Source: a virus
Strand: one strand, 5' to 3'
Virus genome (UHGV): UHGV-1436539
Length of the DNA: 8,437 bases
Shown: piece by piece, positions 1 through 8,437 of the stretch
Position numbering within the stretch: the first letter of the stretch is position 1
How the letters are laid out: each line of letters starts with the position of its first letter
Translations under genes and position numbers: made by a program
The notes under the pieces: model-generated
Told to the model about the DNA's origin: nothing
Databases searched by the model: none
What the model saw: the letters and a program-made list of their open reading frames with translations, nothing else

Positions 1-140
1 AAATGCCGGTGCATGATCCGTCATCAGAATCCTTTGATTGGGAAACTATCTTTGAAAGCAGTGATCGCTGTGGTGAGACTGTAGCGCGGACATGTCTATT
101 TGGTCAGAGACGGACATCTCAATTTAGCTACTGCAATATG

Positions 141-173
141 AGTGCGCATAATGTACGACTCGTTATGTTGAAA
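141..173 (+). other. Degenerate dif-like XerCD site at the left prophage junction, with expanded central region
   Basis: AGTGCGCATAA-TGTACGACTCG-TTATGTTGAAA. The XerC arm and the first 4 central nt match the canonical dif at 8385-8412 and the XerD arm matches 9/11, but the central region is 11 nt instead of 6. Confidence 0.7.
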
Positions 174-207
174 AGGCCGCTGCGAAAATCGAATCCCGCA
201 GCGGCCT
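174..207. terminator. GC-rich stem-loop, putative (bidirectional) intrinsic terminator downstream of the minus-strand CDS 240-1502; alternatively part of the phage att structure
   Basis: Perfect 11-bp inverted repeat AGGCCGCTGCG (174-184) / CGCAGCGGCCT (197-207) with a 12-nt loop. Only a 3-nt T tract follows on either strand, so terminator function is uncertain. Confidence 0.45.
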
Positions 208-239
208 CTTTAGCATAACGTCATTGTGCGAACCAATAA

Positions 240-1502
240 TTATCCCTCTATTATATTTTCCCTTTCCAATACCTCACGAATTTGTTGGAATACAGCACTT
301 ATATTCCCTTTAGGGAATCTTATTTGCCCTAATCCATTTATGTTGGAGAACTCTTCACATCCGTCTTCAAGAAGAATGATTGCCCGTTCAAAGCCCAGCT
401 TACCTTGAAAAAGTCCTGCTTCATGTATGACATTCATTCTTGCTTGGACTTTTCCTTCTTGAGTTTCATCTTCGGCAGTCATCAAAATAAAGGCAAATGC
501 AGCCTGCTCTAACATTTGATTAAGCCTTGTTATGTTTGTCACCCCGGCAATTGATACTCTATTAAATTCATCATAGGGTTGATGCAATTTATCTTTTATG
601 AAATCTTTAAGTTCAAGCCAAAGCTTTGATTTCCCATGACCAATAAATATATTTATTCCCGCATCTTTTTCACGCATCATCTTCCCCTCTAAGTTATTGA
701 TATGCTTGTATAATTTATCAATAAGTTTTTGTAGTTCATTACAAGATGAGTATGCACCCATAACTTCTGCAACTCGAACCCTGAGATTAATGTGTGGTGG
801 TACTCGTATTCCTTCTTGTAATGCCATGTTATCAGAGCTGGTTACTTGTTTTGGAAGGAAAAGTGACAGAATTTGTTTTTCGGATAAGATTTTGCTGTTT
901 TCAATTTTAGATACTAAGTCTTCTAAAAATTTATCTTCAGGTGGAAGGCTTTTTTTCTGTGCATAATATAATGATAAAGCGTCACTTTTTAAATCGTTAA
1001 ATATTGAATTTACCTCATTTGCTTTTTTAATCTCTTCCAATAAATCTTCTTTAGTTAAGTCACACTTATTTAATATATAATCAGTTATTTGTTCTGGATC
1101 ATATTCTACCCAATCACCTATACTTTTCATTCCCTCGGTTAAATATCCACCCATATTTTGAAATGGGCTGTTAAATCCCCAATCCTTGTTAAACACCGCC
1201 CCAGTCGGAGGTTTTTGCAGGCCATTGTAATAGACCCTTGATTGATAGCCTATAAATGAACCTGACCAAGATTCATCTAGTTTACTGGTTAACGTTAAAA
1301 CTGATGAAAGTTTGCTCACATCATAGTTACTTAGCTTCTTTAACTTATCCATTAAATCAAGGTATTGATTTGCGCTCACTGTGTAATCTCCAAGCCTAAA
1401 ATTTGCACAATTTAAAACGTGCAGTGTAGGTAATACTGCACGTTTGTACCATTCGTGGTACTTAATCCTTTTGTTTGGAAGACATGAGATCTTCTGCTGC
1501 AT
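240..1502 (-). CDS. Two-domain protein: N-terminal domain of unknown function (~aa 1-280) plus C-terminal TIR-like (PF10137-type) putative effector domain; candidate defence or toxin effector
   Basis: Long minus-strand ORF (~420 aa from ATG at 1500-1502; the track's TTG at 1518-1520 would give 426 aa). The C-terminal region (plus-strand coordinates ~306-659) has the motif series IFIGHGKS ... AFAFILMTAEDE ... ARMNVIHEAGLFQGKLGFERAIILLEDG, which matches my recollection of the TIR-like family consensus (FIVHGHD ... FAVVLLTPDD ... RxNVIFELGYFxGKLGRxRV). No strong SD at any candidate start, so the start is uncertain. Confidence 0.6.
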   Translation of the reverse strand: MQQKISCLPNKRIKYHEWYKRAVLPTLHVLNCANFRLGDYTVSANQYLDLMDKLKKLSNYDVSKLSSVLTLTSKLDESWSGSFIGYQSRVYYNGLQKPPTGAVFNKDWGFNSPFQNMGGYLTEGMKSIGDWVEYDPEQITDYILNKCDLTKEDLLEEIKKANEVNSIFNDLKSDALSLYYAQKKSLPPEDKFLEDLVSKIENSKILSEKQILSLFLPKQVTSSDNMALQEGIRVPPHINLRVRVAEVMGAYSSCNELQKLIDKLYKHINNLEGKMMREKDAGINIFIGHGKSKLWLELKDFIKDKLHQPYDEFNRVSIAGVTNITRLNQMLEQAAFAFILMTAEDETQEGKVQARMNVIHEAGLFQGKLGFERAIILLEDGCEEFSNINGLGQIRFPKGNISAVFQQIREVLERENIIEG

Positions 1503-1644
1503 CTTTAGAGTAGTTATCAATCAGATAACCTAAAATCTCTGTCCATGTAATTGTTTTTCCTAGTTTTACACTGGCGTTTATAGCCAGTCGTTCTAGTTTC
1601 ATTTTTCTTTCTTCCGTCACGTTATAAGTCGTGCGCTTTGCCAT
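1462..1644 (-). CDS. Small (60 aa) putative ribbon-helix-helix (CopG/Arc-like) DNA-binding protein; candidate repressor or antitoxin
   Basis: ATG-initiated ORF divergent from gII. The N-terminus MAKRTTYNVTEERKMKLERLA has the basic beta-strand plus helix pattern typical of RHH proteins. It overlaps the 5' end of the downstream CDS 240-1502 (ATG at 1502) by ~40 nt, suggesting an operon. Confidence 0.5.
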   Translation of the reverse strand: MAKRTTYNVTEERKMKLERLAINASVKLGKTITWTEILGYLIDNYSKDAAEDLMSSKQKD

Positions 1645-1813
1645 TTTTTACGCTCGTTCAATGCAATATTTGAAGTGAGTATACATGCTCATGAACTCAT
1701 ATCATCCAATCCTCTTGAACTCACTAGCTCACTGGTGTAATGTTAAAACACTAATGAACTACTGAACTCATGTGTTAGTAAGTCGTCATTTTTGCAATTT
1801 TGAGGATTTATTT
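1645..1813. promoter_or_regulatory. Divergent intergenic control region between the RHH gene and gII, with clustered direct repeats (candidate operators and promoters)
   Basis: TGAACTCA occurs at 1692-1699, 1716-1723 and 1763-1770, with a variant TGAACTAC at 1755-1762, and CTCACT occurs twice in tandem at 1720-1734. Candidate sigma70 elements: TTGAAC (1715-1720), 17 bp, TAATGT (1738-1743) towards gII; TATACT on the minus strand (1678-1683) towards the RHH gene. Promoter calls are weak. Confidence 0.4.
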
Positions 1814-2866
1814 GTGATCGATTGGCTTACCGGGATTTTCCCTTGCACACACAAACCGCTTCCGGCGGGGAGTGTTGTCAGCGTTGATGCTGACGGTGCA
1901 ATTGAGTGGGAAACCGTTAAGCGACTCACTGTTCGCGGTTCGCATGAAGCAACGATGAAAGTACGATCGATAGGATCTAATGGCGAAGGTAAAGCGACAC
2001 ATTTGTACATTGATGGTAATCCGTCCAAGTTTTTGCAGGGACATTCTGTTGTTGGGTCGGATGATATACAAGGGCTCATGTTGACGGCCTATGCCAGGAT
2101 TTTATCCTTATTGAATATTCCTCATGATTTAGCGTCTTATAAAGCCGTTATGGCCGGTCAGTATAAAATTTCTCGTGTTGACATTAATTACATGTATTCA
2201 TTATCTACGCTGGAAAATGTCAGATCATGGCTTTATGCCGCCGAATTTAAAGCTAAAACACGCCATGGTCGCGCATGTGGGAAAGGCGGTACAGTTTATT
2301 TAGGTAAAAACTCCCGTCGATGGAGTCTGAAATTTTATTCAAAATATGATGAACATGTTTCGGGTAAAAAAGGGCACCAGATAGCCGAAGAGTTTGTACG
2401 AGCCGGGTTACTGGACTGGACGAAAGATAAATTACGTATTGAATTAACATTAAGAACAACTGAGCTTATTGATTTAAATTTAACGCTTGGCGCTAACTGG
2501 AATATGAAAACACCACGTAAATTATTCTCTGAATATGTAGGGAGAATAGAAATGAATCAGAATGCTATTTTAAGTGATGAAAAAATAACGAAACTGCCAA
2601 GAAAAATACAGTCAACTTATTTACTTTGGAAACAAGGGGCTAACATGAAAGAAATGTTACCTCATAACACTTTTTATCGCCATAGAAGAGAGTTGCTTTC
2701 GTTCGGTATCGATATTAATTTCTATTGTGATTCACCAGACTCTAATAACGTTGTTCCGCTAATAAGAACGCTGGAAGCCAAGCCAGCGGAAATCCCCTTA
2801 TGGATTTATGAGAAAGGTTTTATTTTCGATTACAACCGTATTTCGCACGCCAGTAGCTGGCATTAA
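1814..2866 (+). CDS. gII: Replication initiation protein pII (rolling-circle nicking protein, Phage_CRI family)
   Basis: The segment VRGSHEATMKVRSIGSNG...HLYIDGNPSKFLQGHSVVGSDD resembles Ff pII/RstA-type initiators. GTG at 1814 is preceded by SD GAGGA (1802-1806) with a 7-nt spacer and gives an MID... N-terminus like Ff pII; the in-frame GTG at 1772 has no SD. Confidence 0.8.
   Translation: MIDWLTGIFPCTHKPLPAGSVVSVDADGAIEWETVKRLTVRGSHEATMKVRSIGSNGEGKATHLYIDGNPSKFLQGHSVVGSDDIQGLMLTAYARILSLLNIPHDLASYKAVMAGQYKISRVDINYMYSLSTLENVRSWLYAAEFKAKTRHGRACGKGGTVYLGKNSRRWSLKFYSKYDEHVSGKKGHQIAEEFVRAGLLDWTKDKLRIELTLRTTELIDLNLTLGANWNMKTPRKLFSEYVGRIEMNQNAILSDEKITKLPRKIQSTYLLWKQGANMKEMLPHNTFYRHRRELLSFGIDINFYCDSPDSNNVVPLIRTLEAKPAEIPLWIYEKGFIFDYNRISHASSWH
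2552..2866 (+). CDS. gX: pX-like protein from an internal in-frame start within gII (C-terminal 104 aa of pII)
   Basis: In-frame ATG at 2552 preceded by a strong SD GGGAGA (2540-2545) with a 6-nt spacer; this mirrors the Ff gene X arrangement. An alternative in-frame ATG at 2504 lacks an SD. Confidence 0.55.
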   Translation: MNQNAILSDEKITKLPRKIQSTYLLWKQGANMKEMLPHNTFYRHRRELLSFGIDINFYCDSPDSNNVVPLIRTLEAKPAEIPLWIYEKGFIFDYNRISHASSWH

Positions 2867-2877
2867 AGGAAAGTAAT

Positions 2878-3195
2878 ATGTCTAATTATGGTCTTTTCGT
2901 TAAGGGTAAAATGTTGGGAGCCCGCCAACGTAATAAAGTTAATGGTCAGGGCTATTATAATGAAATTGGTATTGGTCTTGAAATACCTGATGGTTTTGGT
3001 GGTACAAAGCAGGATCAAATTATTATTCGAGTTTCTCAAGCTCTCGTTAATGCAGGTCTAATGAACCAGGCGAATGCTTTCATTGGGAAATTAGTTCAAA
3101 TTCCTGTCTATGTCCGTGCATGGTCAATGGAGGGCAGGGAAGGTGTAACTTATAATGTTTCTTCCGATGGTGGCATCGCAGAGATCAAAGGTTAA
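2878..3195 (+). CDS. gV: Putative ssDNA-binding protein pV (assigned by position; sequence divergent)
   Basis: 105-aa ORF between gII and gVII with SD AAGGAAA upstream. Assignment rests on synteny with Ff phages; I do not see clear similarity to Ff gVp. Confidence 0.55.
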   Translation: MSNYGLFVKGKMLGARQRNKVNGQGYYNEIGIGLEIPDGFGGTKQDQIIIRVSQALVNAGLMNQANAFIGKLVQIPVYVRAWSMEGREGVTYNVSSDGGIAEIKG

Positions 3196-3197
3196 AT

Positions 3198-3284
3198 ATG
3201 GACGATGTTATTCAAATTTTGATAGCGTCTGGCATTGTTATTTCTTTTGGCCTCGGCGCTATTACTGCGGGGGTTTTTCGATAA
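3198..3284 (+). CDS. gVII: Minor coat protein pVII (28 aa)
   Basis: ATG 3 nt after the gV stop encodes MDDVIQILIASGIVISFGLGAITAGVFR, a small hydrophobic protein at the Ff gVII position. Confidence 0.65.
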   Translation: MDDVIQILIASGIVISFGLGAITAGVFR

Positions 3285-3379
3285 TGTATATTGTTTATTT
3301 CTTTGGGGCTTACACCTTTGGTTTTGCCCTTTTCTATGCGGTCGGTTCATTTAAATCATTTTCTGACCGATTAATGTAA
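3284..3379 (+). CDS. gIX: Minor coat protein pIX (31 aa)
   Basis: ATG overlaps the gVII stop (TAATG) and encodes MYIVYFFGAYTFGFALFYAVGSFKSFSDRLM, a small hydrophobic protein at the Ff gIX position. Confidence 0.6.
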   Translation: MYIVYFFGAYTFGFALFYAVGSFKSFSDRLM

Positions 3380-3398
3380 CCTTAATGGAGTTATTTCT

Positions 3399-3641
3399 AT
3401 GAAAATTCTGTCTACTGTTAAATCTAAAGTTGCTCTGGCTTCAACTGCGCTTTTTGTTTCTGCAAGTTCTTTTGCGGCTGAAGGCGCTACAGGCGGTACT
3501 GATTATGCAGGTCAGGCAATGGATGCATTACTGACTCAGGCAAATGATCTCATTGGTAAAGTATGGCCTGTTGTTGTGGCTGTGGTTGGCGCTGGGCTTG
3601 CTATTCGTATTTTCAAAAAATTCTCTTCAAAAGCGGTTTAA
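3399..3641 (+). CDS. gVIII: Major coat protein pVIII precursor (80 aa; predicted 26-aa signal peptide, mature ~54 aa)
   Basis: Signal peptide ends ...SASSFA before AEG..., as in Ff pVIII. It has an acidic N-terminus, a hydrophobic core and a basic C-terminus [12 protein letters not shown], closely matching the Ff/IKe consensus ...FKKF(T/S)SKA. SD GGAG lies 8 nt upstream. Confidence 0.93.
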
Positions 3642-3651
3642 ATTTCACTCA

Positions 3652-3674
3652 GGGGCACTCGTTGCCCCTTTATT
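3652..3674 (+). terminator. Rho-independent terminator downstream of gVIII
   Basis: Stem GGGGCA / TGCCCC with loop CTCGT (3652-3668) followed by TTTATT, at the same position as the strong terminator after gene VIII in Ff phages. Confidence 0.7.
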
Positions 3675-3687
3675 AAAGCGGGTTACT

Positions 3688-4908
3688 ATGAAAAGGAAAA
3701 TATTAATTCTTTCCGCTGTCCTCATTTCTCCTTTTTCACATGCTGATTCATGGGAAAGCATTACTAAATCTACTTATCAAAGCTCTGCCTACGCTGAAAG
3801 TAAGCAAATAACCAATCAGGATGGCTCTAAGACAACGGTTTACTATATTGATGCTGCTATGCAGGCCTCCGCTTGTCAGGGTGCTAAATCCAGTGCTCAG
3901 AGTGTATTTACTCAGGTTAAACTAACTTATGAGGGTATCTGGCCTGATTCTGAATTCCGTCTTGTTTTTACTGGTGATTGTACTTACAGCGATTCACCAG
4001 GGCAGAAGGATAAATATTGGTCTTTAACGGCTTATATTGTTGGTGATATTCAGCGTTCTGTTCCTGATGCAAAACCTACTGACCCGACACCAGAAGAAAT
4101 TTGCGAAGCGAAGCCGCCAGAAGAAGGTGTATTTAATAATGTCGATTCATATGATGGTGGTCGCTATATCTACTATAACGGCTGTGAATATGAGGCTACT
4201 GGTGTCATTGTTTGTCAGAATGATGGTACTGTTTGTGCTGCTACATGGAAGCCTACAGGGAGCGTAGCAGATCCATCTGATAAACCTTCAACTCCTCAAA
4301 ATGGCGGTGGTGAATCTGGCGGTGGTGAATCTGGCGGCGGTGAATCCGGTGGCGGTAGTTCTGGCGGTGGTTCCAGTGGTTCCAGTCTTTCTAAAGGTGA
4401 TATTCAGACTGCTATCGAAGGTGCTTCACCCAAAATAGCCAGCGATATTCATGATAAATTAACAGAGAAAGATACATCCTCAGATGATAAAAAATATGCT
4501 GATGAACAGACAAATAATAATATATTACGTCTGGATGATTCCTTAAATAACCTTACCCGTGGAGCGGGGCGTTTTGCTGACCCTTCTGGCGGTGATTCAC
4601 GCTATGGAAAGGGCGATTCTGAACTAGATTCTGCTTCAACTTTGGCAGATTCCGAATTAGGGATAGCAAAAGATTCGCATGGTGCTTTATGGGAAGCATT
4701 TTTAAATAAAGATGCTATGCTTCCTAACTTACCCAATGGTAACGGCTGCTCTGATTTTATTATTTTCCCCGGGGAGGTTTATCAGATTGATATTGGTTGC
4801 GATAAATTACTGACTATTAAAGATGTTCTTTCATGGGTTTTTTATTGCCTTACGTTCTGGTATGTCTTTACTTCTTTAACTTCATTGCTTCGTAAAGGGG
4901 GTGAGTGA
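3688..4908 (+). CDS. gIII: Attachment/adsorption protein pIII (406 aa) with signal peptide, N-terminal putative receptor-binding domain, N1-like TolA-binding domain, Gly-rich linker and C-terminal membrane anchor
   Basis: Signal peptide [47 protein letters not shown] resembles the Ff N1 segment YANYEGCLWNATGVVVCTGDETQCYGTW. Linker (GGGES)3(GGGSS) and a hydrophobic C-terminus are present. The ATG at 3688 is chosen over the upstream alternative start of the track ORF, which overlaps gVIII. Confidence 0.9.
4303..4386 (+). repeat. Tandem 15-bp coding repeats (GGCGGTGGTGAATCT-like, about five and a half units) encoding the Gly/Ser/Glu-rich pIII linker
   Basis: Near-identical 15-nt units are directly visible, translating to [25 protein letters not shown]. 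Confidence 0.85.
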
Positions 4909-5249
4909 TGCCTTTATTGTTAGGTATTCCTGCATTGTTGCGTTTTCTCATTGGTCTTGTCCCTTTGTTTATTGGCTATGTGGCGAGTTTTTTAGCTCGA
5001 CTTGCTACCAAAACAGGATTAATCGCCTTTGCATTGGTCGCACTAATTACAACAACTGTTACGCTTTTAATGCAGTACCTTGCTGAGGTCATGTATAACG
5101 GTTTACCTGCTGATTTCTCTCATTTAATGGCATCTGTATTACCTGACCATTTTCAGGCGTGTGTTAACGTTATTATGGTTACTCGTATCAGTGTTTTTGT
5201 TTTCGATTTAAAACAAAAATTCCTTGATTATGCAAACAGGGTGATTTAA
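4908..5249 (+). CDS. gVI: Minor coat protein pVI (113 aa)
   Basis: [13 protein letters not shown]... closely resembles Ff pVI (MPVLLGIPLLLRF...), and ...FDLKQKF resembles Ff FDVKQK. The start overlaps the gIII stop; SD AAGGGGG is present. Confidence 0.9.
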   Translation: MPLLLGIPALLRFLIGLVPLFIGYVASFLARLATKTGLIAFALVALITTTVTLLMQYLAEVMYNGLPADFSHLMASVLPDHFQACVNVIMVTRISVFVFDLKQKFLDYANRVI

Positions 5250-6344
5250 ATGGCGGTTCATGTAGTAACAGGCAAATTAGGCTCAGGTAAGACACTTGTT
5301 AGTGTTTCCCGAATACAGGAAAGACTTGCTAAGGGTTGTCCTGTTGCCACTAATCTTGATCTTAAATTGCATAATATGCCTATGGTTGGTCGTTATGCGA
5401 AAAAAACGCGCGTTATTCGCGTTCCTGATAAGCCTTCATTAAATGATTTACTGGCTATTGGTATTGGGAATACATCTTACGATGAATCCCGCAATGGCCT
5501 TCTGGTACTTGATGAATGTGGTACTTGGTTTAATTCCCGTTCATGGGGTGATAAAGACAGACAACCTGTTATTGACTGGTTTTTACATGCCCGTAAATTA
5601 GGCTGGGATATTATATTTTTGATTCAGGATATTTCGATAATGGATAAGCAAGCTCGTCTGGCGCTTGCTGAACATGTTGTTTATTGCCGACGTTCAGATA
5701 AATTAAATATCCCTTTTATTGGCTCCATTATGAATTTGGTTTCAGGGGCGCGATTTTCTTTACCAAAAGTACACTTTGGTATTGTTAAGTATGGTGACAA
5801 TATTAACTCAATCACTGTTGATAAGTGGATATATACCGGAAAATCTCTTTATTCTGCTTACAATACCAAACAAGCGTTCACAGATAATTATCCTCATGGC
5901 GCATTTTCGCTTTTGCCTCCATTTATCACACACGGTCAATTTTCTGTTCATAGGGGATTTAATTATTATATGCGCCTCACTAAAATTTATTTCCGTAAAT
6001 CGAATCGTCTTATATTAATGCTTTCTTTTCTGGTGCTGGGACTTGGTCTTGGTTTCTGGTTCCAGTCTGGAAAGAATGTTGATGAAATCACAGCTATTAA
6101 ATCTTCTTATGCTGAACAGGCGAGGGCGGTAACGCCTGATTCGTCCAGTGATTTACCCCGACTTTCTATTAATTCTTTTTCACAACTTGGTTTTGACGTT
6201 TCTGTTACATTTATTGATGCTAAAGGTATGAAATATCAGTATTTTGATTTAATTAAAGATGGTTATTCCGTTGATATTAAAGATGCCTGTCGTATTTTTA
6301 TCAGAAAAGGCCGTTATTTACAGACCGTTACCTGTCAGGAGTAA
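5250..6344 (+). CDS. gI: Assembly ATPase pI (Zot-like, 364 aa)
   Basis: Strong similarity to Ff pI throughout, including MAVxxVTGKLGSGKTLVSV (Walker A), LLVLDECGTWFNxRSW (Walker B region) and DWFLHARKLGWDIIFL. Confidence 0.95.
   Translation: MAVHVVTGKLGSGKTLVSVSRIQERLAKGCPVATNLDLKLHNMPMVGRYAKKTRVIRVPDKPSLNDLLAIGIGNTSYDESRNGLLVLDECGTWFNSRSWGDKDRQPVIDWFLHARKLGWDIIFLIQDISIMDKQARLALAEHVVYCRRSDKLNIPFIGSIMNLVSGARFSLPKVHFGIVKYGDNINSITVDKWIYTGKSLYSAYNTKQAFTDNYPHGAFSLLPPFITHGQFSVHRGFNYYMRLTKIYFRKSNRLILMLSFLVLGLGLGFWFQSGKNVDEITAIKSSYAEQARAVTPDSSSDLPRLSINSFSQLGFDVSVTFIDAKGMKYQYFDLIKDGYSVDIKDACRIFIRKGRYLQTVTCQE
5970..6344 (+). CDS. gXI: pXI-like protein from an internal in-frame start of gI (124 aa, membrane-anchored C-terminal part)
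   Basis: In-frame ATG at codon 241 of gI (MRLTKIYFRK...), the same codon position and local motif as the Ff gene XI start (MKLTKIYLKK). Confidence 0.55.
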   Translation: MRLTKIYFRKSNRLILMLSFLVLGLGLGFWFQSGKNVDEITAIKSSYAEQARAVTPDSSSDLPRLSINSFSQLGFDVSVTFIDAKGMKYQYFDLIKDGYSVDIKDACRIFIRKGRYLQTVTCQE

Positions 6345-6351
6345 TATTATT

Positions 6352-7617
6352 ATGCGCTCTTTTATTATTGCTTTTTTATTTACCTGTTCATTCTGCGTTT
6401 CTGCTGAAACTGTTAATTTAAATAATTCGTCTGTTCGCTCATTTGTTCAGTGGTATTCGTCAAAAACTGGCAAGCCTGTTATTGTTAATCCTGATGTTAA
6501 AGGGAACGTAACCGTATTTAATGCTGATGTTAACCCAACAAATATTGATGATTTCTTTAAGTCTGTTCTCAATGCTAACGGGTTTGTTATGCTTTCCGGT
6601 AATCCTGCGGTTGTCTCTTTGCCGTCTAAATTACCGTCACAAATGGCTTCTGACTCCGGCGACTCTGATAATCAGTCTTATGATTCTTTTCCTTCTGAGC
6701 CATCTTACCAGCCAGTACCTGTGGCGCTTACGGTCAGAAATTTTAAGCTGACAAAAGTTAGATCGTCCGATGTTCAGCAACTGATTAAAATTTATCTTGA
6801 TTCTAATGGTGGTGGTAATGTCGTGGATTATCCAGGCAATAACTCGCTGATTGTTTCTGCGCCTGACGAGCTGCTGCCGGTTCTGTCCGATTTTATCAAT
6901 TCTGTGGATGTTGCCCGCGATCAGGTTCTCATTCAGTCGCTGATGTTTGAAACCAGCTTGTCTGATGGCGTTGATTTATCGTTTGCGGCAGGTTCTGCAT
7001 CCGGTCATAAGGTTGCGGGGGGCTTTAATACTTCTGCACTGGGTAGCGCTCTTTCTACGGCGGGCGGTTCTTTTGGTATTTTTGATGGTAACGTGTTGGC
7101 GCTGTCTCTGCGTGCTGTCCAGAGTAATTCACGCTCTAAGGTGATTTCAACGCCGCGTATTCTTACTCAGTCTGGTCAGACTGGTTACATTTCCGTAGGT
7201 AAGAATGTGCCGTTTATCACCGGAAAGGTAACGGGCGAATCTGCCGGCGTAAATAATCCGTTTCAGACTATCGAGCGTCATGATGTTGGCGTTTCTCTCA
7301 AGGTAACGCCTGTTGTCATGGGTAACGGGCAACTAGTTCTGACTATCGACACTCGCGCTGATTCAATCAGCAATGATGATCAGGCATCCGATATTATTAC
7401 TAATCAGCGCCAGATTCAGACGACAGTCCAGATTAAGGATGGTCAGACGTTGTTATTGGGGGGGCTTATCGATTCATCGTTCAGCAATGCCGAGCGTTCA
7501 GTTCCAGTTATAAGTAAAATTCCTCTTATAGGCTGGATGTTCAGTAGCAAGGCAGACAGCAATGAACAGCGTATTATGTATATTTTGCTTACAGCACATA
7601 TCATTCGTCCACTTTGA
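6352..7617 (+). CDS. gIV: Outer-membrane secretin pIV (421 aa) for phage extrusion
   Basis: Signal peptide MRSFIIAFLFTCSFCVSA. Extensive similarity to Ff pIV, including the C-terminal secretin block VPFITGKVTGESAGVNNPFQTIER, QTLLLGGL and SKIPLIG. ATG at 6352 with SD AGGAG; the upstream track start overlaps gI and is rejected. Confidence 0.95.
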   Translation: MRSFIIAFLFTCSFCVSAETVNLNNSSVRSFVQWYSSKTGKPVIVNPDVKGNVTVFNADVNPTNIDDFFKSVLNANGFVMLSGNPAVVSLPSKLPSQMASDSGDSDNQSYDSFPSEPSYQPVPVALTVRNFKLTKVRSSDVQQLIKIYLDSNGGGNVVDYPGNNSLIVSAPDELLPVLSDFINSVDVARDQVLIQSLMFETSLSDGVDLSFAAGSASGHKVAGGFNTSALGSALSTAGGSFGIFDGNVLALSLRAVQSNSRSKVISTPRILTQSGQTGYISVGKNVPFITGKVTGESAGVNNPFQTIERHDVGVSLKVTPVVMGNGQLVLTIDTRADSISNDDQASDIITNQRQIQTTVQIKDGQTLLLGGLIDSSFSNAERSVPVISKIPLIGWMFSSKADSNEQRIMYILLTAHIIRPL

Positions 7618-7658
7618 TGGATAGCGGGTAGGTGCGTGAGCCCTGCTCGCTATCCATC
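7616..7658 (+). other. Stable hairpin immediately after gIV: candidate packaging signal or gIV transcript terminator structure
   Basis: Perfect 11-bp inverted repeat GATGGATAGCG (7616-7626) / CGCTATCCATC (7648-7658) with a ~21-nt loop and no following T tract. In Ff phages the packaging-signal hairpin lies directly after gene IV. Confidence 0.4.
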
Positions 7659-7686
7659 AAATGGACATTATTGATTGGGGTAACTA

Positions 7687-7995
7687 ATGGATTCTTATGG
7701 GATTTTATCTGCTCTGGCAGAACGAACGATTACAGCGGAAGAAGCAAAAACAATGACACTTGCAGCCAGAAGTTCTTCGGCTCAGGTAAATGAAGCATCA
7801 CTTGCTCTGTTACTGATTGATAATACTCTGGATGCGATCAAAGCAGCTGCCAGTGAAGGGAAAGGATACACTCTACTTCCTTCTTATGAGATTTCTGTAA
7901 AAGCCATTGATTTAGCAGAAGAATTTTTAAGGAAACAATGCGGCTATGTTATTGATAACCAGAATGGCGTAAGGACGGTCTATTGGTTTATATGA
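7687..7995 (+). CDS. Hypothetical protein (102 aa), accessory gene in the prophage right arm
   Basis: ATG-initiated ORF with a weak SD (GGGG) in the otherwise non-coding stretch between gIV and the right dif. I recognise no family. Confidence 0.45.
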   Translation: MDSYGILSALAERTITAEEAKTMTLAARSSSAQVNEASLALLLIDNTLDAIKAAASEGKGYTLLPSYEISVKAIDLAEEFLRKQCGYVIDNQNGVRTVYWFI

Positions 7996-7996
7996 T

Positions 7997-8041
7997 AACC
8001 CCGGACAGTGACAAAACTTGCTTTTGTTAGTGTCAGGGGTT
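7997..8041 (+). other. Long imperfect hairpin (~20-bp stem, 3 mismatches) followed ~20 nt later by a T7 tract (8062-8068); candidate terminator or replication/att-associated structure
   Basis: AACCCCGGACAGTGACAAAAC / TTTTGTTAGTGTCAGGGGTT inverted repeat with a 4-nt loop, visible in the sequence. Confidence 0.35.
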
Positions 8042-8112
8042 GGCCAAGCCGAACAATTCTGTTTTTTTAGCGTTATTGCTGATTCGGCGCGGCAGCATTA
8101 CGAGGAGATAAA

Positions 8113-8346
8113 ATGCAATTTTTCACATCCAGCGATACTGTAATGTTATGTGCGAAGACCTGCGATCGCTGTGGTCGCCATGCGAAGACGGTGGTAGATG
8201 ACATTGAGTTCAATGAGTTTCTGTCTGTTAATCACTTAGCTGGATACGGTTCAATTTTTGGTGACAGTAATCGCTTAAAACTAGATTTATGCCAACATTG
8301 CCTGAAAGACGTCCTGGGCCAGTGGATTACGGTCTGTGACCAATGA
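8113..8346 (+). CDS. Hypothetical small Cys-rich protein (77 aa), putative zinc ribbon
   Basis: Strong SD GAGGAG (8102-8107) 5 nt before the ATG. Cys pattern C-x3-C-x2-C ... C-x2-C (CAKTCDRCG ... CQHC). Function unknown. Confidence 0.55.
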   Translation: MQFFTSSDTVMLCAKTCDRCGRHAKTVVDDIEFNEFLSVNHLAGYGSIFGDSNRLKLDLCQHCLKDVLGQWITVCDQ

Positions 8347-8384
8347 CCGCACCGGTAACGCCAGTTCCCGCCATCCTTACCATT

Positions 8385-8412
8385 GGTGCGCATAATGTAT
8401 ATTATGTTAAAT
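8385..8412 (+). other. dif: Canonical dif site (XerCD chromosome-dimer resolution site) forming the right prophage junction
   Basis: Exact match to the E. coli dif 28-mer GGTGCGCATAA-TGTATA-TTATGTTAAAT as I know it. Confidence 0.85.
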
Positions 8413-8437
8413 TGAGTGTATGTGCGTAAGCAAACCT

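Follow-up and report, generated by a model that had tools for sequence, protein, structure and literature searches.

A UPΦ-type filamentous prophage at the dif site of a Klebsiella chromosome, with a probable CTXφ-like attachment site and a TIR-domain cargo gene

The window analysed here, viral genome UHGV-1436539, is a whole 8,437-bp human-gut metagenome contig (ENA ERZ28661258, SAMEA2737806, scaffold_3749) in which a filamentous phage (inovirus) carrying a TIR-domain cargo gene lies between flanks of 140 and 25 nucleotides (nt). Very probably, the integrated phage genome spans 8,244 nt, is of the UPΦ type and entered dif of a Klebsiella chromosome by a CTXφ-type route. Because an inovirus sits at dif without a recombinase of its own, the element reads as an IMEX (an integrative mobile element that exploits Xer) that makes use of host XerCD. 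A sequence-only reading had proposed such an integrase-less, Ff/IKe-like, gIV-encoding IMEX at dif, and the gene set, the junctions and the lack of an own recombinase all support it. Copy number (a single prophage or a collapsed tandem) is not readable from a contig with flanks of this length.

Hybrid junctions and an empty Klebsiella dif

The two ends of the prophage are formed by different sites, each bordered by host DNA:

1–140, unstranded: host (Klebsiella) chromosomal DNA left of dif; 1–155 is 98.1% identical to K. pneumoniae NZ_CP079635.1
141–173, + strand: attL, the hybrid site AGTGCGCATAA-TGTACGACTCG-TTATGTTGAAA, with host XerC arm, phage centre and phage XerD-like arm
8385–8412, + strand: attR, the exact 28-bp E. 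coli dif GGTGCGCATAATGTATATTATGTTAAAT
8413–8437, unstranded: host DNA right of dif; 23 of 25 positions identical to the sequence after the empty dif in NZ_CP079635.1

In attR, the XerC arm (GGTGCGCATAA) comes from the phage, and the centre (TGTATA) and XerD arm (TTATGTTAAAT) come from the host. At attL, the XerC arm (AGTGCGCATAA, 141–151) has one mismatch, the centre (TGTACGACTCG, 152–162) runs to 11 nt instead of 6 and the XerD-like arm (TTATGTTGAAA, 163–173) has two mismatches. A 14-mer common to both sites, GTGCGCATAATGTA, occurs exactly twice in the window (142–155 and 8386–8399), against a chance expectation of 0.01. On the left the element thus ends in a hybrid junction and not in another dif. 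The earlier proposal that two direct dif-like sites bound the element is too simple: attR is an exact dif; the left site has an 11-nt spacer and a predicted pairing with an inverted site at 208–234.

Joining window positions 1–151 to 8396–8437 recreates an unoccupied site, which aligns without gaps, at 188 of 193 positions, to the empty dif of K. pneumoniae WRC19_AI1572C (NZ_CP079635.1). This empty dif reads AGTGCGCATAATGTATATTATGTTAAAT, and window segments 1–155 and 8386–8437 map 38 nt apart in that record, so the flanks are contiguous at dif in a prophage-free relative, as the sequence-only reading had anticipated. The first base of the site is A in the Klebsiella dif and at attL, and G (the phage base) at attR. 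Because attL keeps the Klebsiella A while attR has the phage G, the crossover is placed inside GTGCGCATAATGTA, on the XerC side. The ends of the window differ in host DNA and in their hybrid sites, whereas true circles of this phage (below) hold a single attP junction; the window is not a permuted free-phage genome, in keeping with the proposed insertion. As duplex DNA, attL (host XerC arm plus phage 11-nt centre) is an unusable Xer substrate. The perfect dif at attR leaves the resolution of chromosome dimers functional and is open to insertion of additional elements.

The attachment site and the route of integration

In the phage attachment site (attP), the first dif-like site (site 1, GGTGCGCATAA-TGTACGACTCG-TTATGTTGAAA) is followed by a hairpin and an inverted partner:

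174–207, + strand: G+C-rich inner hairpin, the tip of the predicted folded attP (inverted repeat 161–184/197–220; compensatory changes in relatives)
208–234, − strand: inverted second dif-like site (the attP partner), GGTTCGCACAA-TGACG-TTATGCTAAAG on the minus strand, with a 5-nt centre

Folded in silico, the 94-nt attP(+) reaches −27.5 kcal/mol (z = −7.8; no shuffle out of 200 matched this stability). The result is one long imperfect hairpin that pairs XerC arm with XerC arm and XerD arm with XerD arm and leaves a bulged centre. Other E. coli inoviruses have this layout too, as do Rosenbergiella, Xenorhabdus and Photorhabdus and, further off, Marinobacter-like and other gammaproteobacterial loci. 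The distant relatives in this comparison came from one gI scan of genome contigs, in which no representative from Yersinia or Klebsiella appeared. Across six sequences, the consensus fold contains 37 pairs, and compensatory changes affect 10 of these. An Rfam search gave nothing meaningful, with one sub-threshold match to a small RNA over the attP hairpin. By comparison with characterized elements, this is most likely a CTX-type folded two-site attP rather than a simple copy of dif.

In CTXφ, the attP1 centre is 12 bp and the attP2 centre 5–7 bp, neither being usable as duplex DNA (PMC4246890); the two inverted dif-like sites of the window have centres of 11 and 5 nt. The likeness extends to a predicted fold of the (+) single-stranded DNA, exchange on the XerC side, a dif regenerated at one end and tandem arrays. 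CTXφ nevertheless belongs to an unrelated phage lineage, lacks a secretin and uses the host EpsD, has an attP of ~150 nt (~94 nt here) and carries ctxAB as cargo. Listed CTX-type members include YpfΦ/CUS-1Φ (PMC4246890; PMC4266046).

On the CTXφ model, the packaged (+) strand would fold so that site 1 and the inverted site 2 (208–234) form a dif-like duplex with a bulged centre, which host XerC and XerD would bind. Immediately 3′ of the XerC arm, XerC would then exchange a single pair of strands with chromosomal dif, aided by the shared TGTA, and replication would turn this intermediate into a prophage with a regenerated dif at its right end. With a folded single-strand attP of the CTXφ type, integration would therefore be essentially irreversible: no Xer excision would be expected, and new phage would arise by rolling-circle replication across tandem copies.

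Integration might instead follow the VGJφ-type scheme, in which the double-stranded replicative form integrates via site 1 alone, XerC acting first, to give XerC-competent junctions and reversible excision. VGJφ-type and TLCφ-type IMEXs, too, make use of XerCD at dif and bring no recombinase themselves. In favour of the scheme, both a XerC and a XerD arm can be recognised in site 1, TGTA is common to site 1 and dif beside the XerC arm, and the circular forms that exist could be excision products. The VGJφ- and TLCφ-type elements, however, use a single duplex attP of 28–29 bp (VGJφ-type sites being 29 bp overall; PMC4246890) reversibly, whereas site 1 of the window has an 11-nt spacer and a conserved inverted partner. 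That partner is kept with compensatory changes in distant relatives, although a duplex attP would not need it, and the E. coli relatives lie in tandem arrays, as expected for replication-dependent production. We consider the VGJφ-type scheme unlikely, and retain the CTXφ-type route as the preferred reading.

Gene content, relatives and circular forms

A Pfam/PHROGs search of the window open reading frames (ORFs) found all Ff core genes on the + strand and in Ff order (gII/X, V, VII, IX, VIII, III, VI, I, IV). None of the ten core genes or of the three conserved accessory ORFs is disrupted. The complete Ff-type set claimed from sequence alone, with the secretin gIV and the Zot-like gI, was thereby recovered gene by gene, and the companion claim that no recombinase is encoded fared equally well: Pfam, NCBIfam and PHROGs gave no integrase, transposase or other recombinase domain in any window ORF. 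The features outside attP and the cargo gene are as follows (aa, amino acids):

1395–1460, − strand: conserved terminator-like hairpins downstream of orf60 (fold z = −5.5; a similar hairpin lies in the I2-2 intergenic region)
1462–1644, − strand: orf60, a conserved reverse small ORF of 60 aa in the 'h3' position (phrog_2503, 3.7e-34)
1814–2866, + strand: gII, replication initiator, 350 aa (Phage_CRI, 8.6e-71, plus G2P_X_C; TIGR01629; 57% aa identity to I2-2 gII)
start at 2552, + strand: putative gX, 104 aa, an in-frame internal start of gII
2878–3195, + strand: gV, single-stranded DNA-binding protein (PF17426, 3.2e-51)
3198–3284, + strand: gVII, minor coat protein (PHROGs 19107; 70% aa identity to IKe)
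3284–3379, + strand: gIX, minor coat protein (PHROGs 28333; 57% aa identity to IKe)
3399–3641, + strand: gVIII, major coat protein (PF19199, 6.5e-19)
3688–4908, + strand: gIII, attachment protein with a G3P pilus-binding domain (PF21443 plus PF05357; three GGGES repeats)
4908–5249, + strand: gVI, minor coat protein (DUF5455; phrog_1944; 51% aa identity to IKe gVI)
5250–6344, + strand: gI, Zot-like assembly ATPase (PF05707, 5.8e-40; 65% aa identity to IKe and I2-2)
6352–7617, + strand: gIV, secretin (PF00263, N0 and Secretin_N; 72–73% aa identity to IKe and I2-2)
7613–7661, + strand: packaging (morphogenetic) signal hairpin directly after gIV (−20 kcal/mol, z = −8.1)
7687–7995, + strand: orf102, conserved, in the 'h1' position (phrog_4115, 2e-68; 100% identical in E. 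coli UM146)
7996–8099, + strand: conserved intergenic island, a candidate replication origin (hairpin 7997–8041, fold z = −4.8)
8113–8346, + strand: orf77, conserved and Cys-rich, in the 'h2' position (phrog_5435, 4.5e-46; 100% identical in UM146)

The three GGGES repeats of gIII occupy residues 206–220, and a tandem 15-nt repeat lies at 4303–4371. The hairpin at 7613–7661 matches the annotated morphogenetic signals of I2-2 and IKe at 87–88% of nucleotides. The island at 7996–8099 is 87% identical in an otherwise unrelated prophage type (gII/gV and attP being common to both). For the small reverse gene orf60, identity reaches 98% in UM146 and 43% with a reverse ORF that is unannotated in I2-2. 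The gene is possibly a regulator; Pfam and NCBIfam detected no helix-turn-helix (HTH) domain in it. Promoter and terminator scans of the window performed no better than on shuffles.

The UPΦ viruses (Shapiro & Putonti 2020, Virus Evolution) are IKe/I2-2-like phages integrated at dif without an integrase, with ~70% aa similarity to both (PMC7307601). Their description includes g3p with GGGES repeats, a pair of novel ORFs following gIV, the conserved h3 in reverse orientation and variable h4/h5 beside dif, with gII and gV >85% identical to YpfΦ and the other genes unrelated (PMC7307601). Reported hosts are E. coli, Salmonella, Citrobacter, Yersinia enterocolitica and K. pneumoniae (29 of 4,647 assemblies), alongside 64 gut metagenomes (PMC7307601). 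The window shares the Ff order, dif integration, GGGES repeats (three here), two ORFs after gIV (orf102 and orf77), a reverse ORF (orf60) and the variable slot; it differs in carrying a 379-aa TIR gene in that slot. The published description treats the attachment site as a dif copy, with no folded two-site attP (PMC7307601). The window is very probably a UPΦ-type phage of this published group, in an already reported host genus and of a known integration class.

Prophages ~96.5% identical to the window at the nucleotide level are present in 47 of 5,426 complete E. coli genomes, between hipA and fimbrial genes and often in tandem. Their core proteins are each 96–100% identical to those of the window (88% for gIII), and they carry a 140-aa ORF that the window lacks. 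These counts, with the publication of dif-integrated Lineavirus-like phages in 2020, overturn the earlier suggestion that a gIV-encoding Ff/IKe-like phage at dif is unusual. Strain UM146 is not listed in the supplements of the UPΦ paper (PMC7307601). Left of attL in its RefSeq sequence (~3940–4000 of the examined locus), many ambiguous bases look as if the 3′ end of hipA and the right end of the phage had been merged into a consensus, and the annotation there makes hipA a pseudogene ('too many ambiguous residues'); the ambiguity probably arose when a tandem prophage array was assembled.

IKe and I2-2 (Lineavirus) have the same gene order, with 50–73% aa identity per gene (gIV 72–73%, gI 65%, gVIII 55–60%, gIII 50–58%, and gII 57% to I2-2). 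Their packaging-signal hairpin is homologous, and I2-2 keeps an orf60-like reverse ORF with an adjacent hairpin. They differ from the window in being episomal and in lacking attP sites, the cargo slot and orf102/orf77.

CUS-1/YpfΦ, of E. coli O18:K1:H7 and Yersinia pestis, offers a second comparison: it is dif-integrated and secretin-encoding, with variable attL-proximal ORFs, tandem arrays, two small ORFs beside attR, an intact 3′ dif and inverted XerC/XerD sites (PMC4266046). Its ~99% identical 7.1-kb core and RstR-like HTH regulator are absent from the window, as compared through a prophage type that fits CUS-1/YpfΦ. This type emerged from a gII–gV search as a second E. coli prophage class of ~80% nucleotide identity, exemplified by TUM13881. 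Common to the TUM13881 prophage and the window are gII (87% aa), gV (94% aa), two short islands between genes and, at 97% nt identity, the attP region. The genes of this prophage for coat, assembly and regulation are unrelated to those of the window (gIV 27% aa, other structural and assembly genes undetectable), and an HTH regulator stands in place of orf60. From its layout it would be of CUS-1/YpfΦ type. Since the relationship is that reported for UPΦ versus YpfΦ, the window is very probably of UPΦ and not of CUS-1/YpfΦ type. We had considered the UM146 prophage (and the window) as CUS-1; the UPΦ paper and this second prophage type, sharing only gII/gV and attP, rule that out.

Beyond these prophages, ~1,000 of the 5,426 complete E. 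coli genomes match the attP-type region. Arrays of different tandem elements occur at dif: in E. coli JNE25-005, two inovirus types contribute at least three secretin-encoding copies, and Rosenbergiella gaditana has four dif-like junctions. One E. coli-like contig, assigned to a Nanosynbacter bin, has a dif-flanked segment of 3.4 kb lying upstream of a UPΦ-type prophage; the ORFs of this segment have no Pfam match.

An exact look-up of the gIV protein located the same phage, 99.8% identical including the cargo gene, integrated in at least five other flank contexts. In these, the attL XerC arm is host-specific (GGTGCGCATAA, GATGCGCATAA or AGTGCGCATAA, starting with GG, GA and AG, respectively), while attR is GGTGCGCATAA+TGTATATTATGTTAAAT in all four copies whose right end is on the contig. 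Unrelated sequencing runs yielded three contigs of 8,289 nt that are circular permutations of one another; their ends overlap by 30 nt, which makes a circle of 8,259 nt. Its junction, ...CCATT-GGTGCGCATAA-TGTACGACTCG-TTATGTTGAAAAGG, is exactly the attP reconstructed from both window ends. Either these circles represent collapsed tandem prophages, or they are DNA of the replicative form or of virions. The 99.8% identity in several hosts, together with the circles, points to horizontal spread of the phage in recent times.

Close or moderate relatives also lie on short contigs in assemblies of unlikely hosts—Izhakiella (8,271 bp, 336x coverage), Paenibacillus and Actinomadura—and are probably episomal forms or contamination. 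The Izhakiella contig was tried as a free form of the phage and set aside, being a different relative without a recognisable dif-like site.

The copy in the window could conceivably be a cryptic, domesticated remnant kept for its cargo and no longer producing phage. A single CTX-type prophage cannot by itself regenerate a circle, and an attP-plus-cargo fragment (145–1471, 97% identical) persists on IncFII plasmids bounded by insertion sequences. Yet the ten core genes and three conserved accessory ORFs are all intact, the genome is 99.8% identical across several hosts and accompanied by the 8,259-nt circles, and UPΦ901 virion DNA is shed by cultures (PMC7307601). A domesticated remnant is therefore very unlikely.

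Some points weigh against a UPΦ-type prophage that integrates by the CTXφ-type route. The covariation set behind the attP fold is small (n = 6); the arms are also constrained by Xer binding, and some complementarity is expected for any inverted Xer sites. Xer dependence, a single-stranded substrate and irreversibility are predicted by analogy with CTXφ. The UPΦ assignment rests on published descriptive features and on near-identity to E. coli prophages that have them. The circular 8,259-nt contigs could, as said, be collapsed tandems rather than replicative form or virion DNA, and the TIR protein stands without a neighbouring cyclase or sensor gene.

Host flanks and the slot beside attP

The flanks match the Klebsiella chromosome around dif, as the sequence-only reading had it in placing the chromosomal terminus on both sides. 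Window positions 1–109 are 99.1% identical to the chromosome of K. pneumoniae strain 176. The record with the empty site, NZ_CP079635.1, is labelled a 1.04-Mb plasmid; the 8.1 kb left of its empty site is 98.5% identical to the strain 176 chromosome (5.37 Mb), and the pgtABC and aldo/keto reductase genes adjoin that chromosomal stretch in K. pneumoniae. The left flank gave no match to hipA, the left neighbour of the E. coli relatives, and the flanks do not match E. coli. On these matches the host is Klebsiella, not E. coli. In strain 176, ISKpn38 is inserted ~30 nt left of dif (10110–11741 of the examined locus), and the sequence right of dif differs from that in the window and NZ_CP079635.1; the region is therefore variable within K. 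pneumoniae.

Window positions 50–139 are also found on 697 PLSDB plasmid records at 85–98% identity, with a dif-like site directly after them (for example, GGTTCGCATAATCTATCTTATGTTAAAT). These records are mostly from Klebsiella, and 517 are conjugative; 70 of the 72 matches in E. coli are on plasmids. A captured chromosomal dif region, a plasmid multimer-resolution site and an IMEX remnant are all candidates for the plasmid copies. We considered and rejected two other origins for the left flank: plasmid DNA, as the E. coli matches might suggest, because positions 1–49 and the right flank match Klebsiella records only; and a CxxC 'mobilome' gene of which, judging by 'DRCG' motifs, the flank would be the 3′ end and which would belong to an adjacent IMEX; this gave no family match, the flank being Klebsiella chromosomal DNA.

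That the contig is no chromosomal insertion at all—but phage DNA with chimeric ends from a free or permuted genome, or a prophage in a plasmid Xer site—is barely credible: it is a short metagenome contig with only 140 + 25 nt of flank, segment 50–139 adjoins dif-like sites on those plasmids and the best empty-site match is in a record labelled 'plasmid', but the Klebsiella-only matches of positions 1–49 and the right flank, the 8.1 kb of chromosomal identity left of the empty site, the chromosomal TGTATA centre of attR (TCTATC or TGTATC in the plasmid sites shown) and the reciprocal hybrid junctions, with a host-specific base at attL and unlike true circular forms, all speak for a chromosomal copy.

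Homology to the E. coli prophages breaks between ~240 and 1394, and resumes at 1395–1460. The interval, an exchangeable slot lying between attP and orf60, is filled by the cargo gene:

240–1379, − strand: cargo gene; its 379-aa product has a CAP12/PycTIR-type TIR domain at the C-terminus, the N-terminal region being uncharacterised

The TIR domain is supported by Pfam (PF10137, 4.8e-23), by PADLOC (PDC-S35, TIR effector, PycTIR) and by PDB Cap12 (E = 0.002). The best PADLOC match is the single-gene candidate PDC-S35, and the NCBIfam Cap12 score is 36 bits against a cutoff of 450. No cyclase of CBASS or Pycsar (CD-NTase or PycC) is present anywhere in the window ORFs. The gene has a GC content of 34.6% (40.7% for the core), and full-length homologues of the protein, at ~50% identity, are widespread. 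From its domain matches, the protein is most likely an NAD+-depleting abortive-infection or anti-phage effector, and a defence role for the cargo appears plausible.

In E. coli copies the same slot holds AbiJ_NTD4+DUF7014, DUF6953 with a DpnII/MboI-type nuclease, Fic/Doc, a CxxC 'mobilome' protein or an ECs_2282 zinc-binding protein. The DUF6953 protein (WP_001527024) and its nuclease (WP_001527023) are identical, and beside attP, in the CUS/Ypf-like TUM13881 prophage and the UPΦ-type 1368KP prophage, which also share gII/gV, attP and an intergenic island (window 7994–8099). Such sharing of cargo, gII/gV, attP and island between unrelated types suggests that modules are exchanged in mixed tandem arrays. 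The plasmid-borne match to 145–1471 spans the attP hairpin and the TIR gene with 77 nt beyond; its IncFII copies are bounded by transposase fragments, have a degraded XerC arm and are a phage-derived cassette stranded on plasmids.

Separately, the N-terminal ~105 residues of the 1368KP nuclease cargo (677–1471 of its locus, minus strand) match the N-terminal part of PDC-S35 profiles, whose C-terminal (TIR) part is matched by the window protein. This hints that one sensor domain is combined with different effector domains in proteins of the slot.

More tentatively, the dif-proximal block (folded attP plus passenger) may be an exchangeable, defence-enriched cassette, swapped between unrelated inovirus lineages that share the gII/origin module and put on conjugative plasmids, with the TIR gene a functional abortive-infection gene by which a chronic, non-lytic phage would protect its host from lytic phages; we hold this possible, though doubtful. 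Hybrid genomes would be made by rolling-circle replication across mixed tandem arrays at dif. For CTXφ/RS1, hybrid genomes have been shown to arise by rolling-circle replication across tandem arrays. Variable regions with a proposed defence role are reported for Vibrio inoviruses (PMC12715192).

The finding mainly confirms known biology, and neither the attP type nor the cargo slot opens a long-standing question. What it adds is modest: an explicit CTX-type attP for the UPΦ group, attP and replication modules common to UPΦ-type and CUS/Ypf-like phages, and a TIR passenger gene. A CTX-type attP in UPΦ predicts irreversible integration and tandem-dependent phage production, and the slot adjacent to attP holds abortive-infection-like genes (TIR, AbiJ-like, restriction-endonuclease-like and Fic/Doc). 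Lineavirus-like phages that integrate at dif, very probably by way of XerCD, are common in Enterobacteriaceae and pass between genera almost unchanged.

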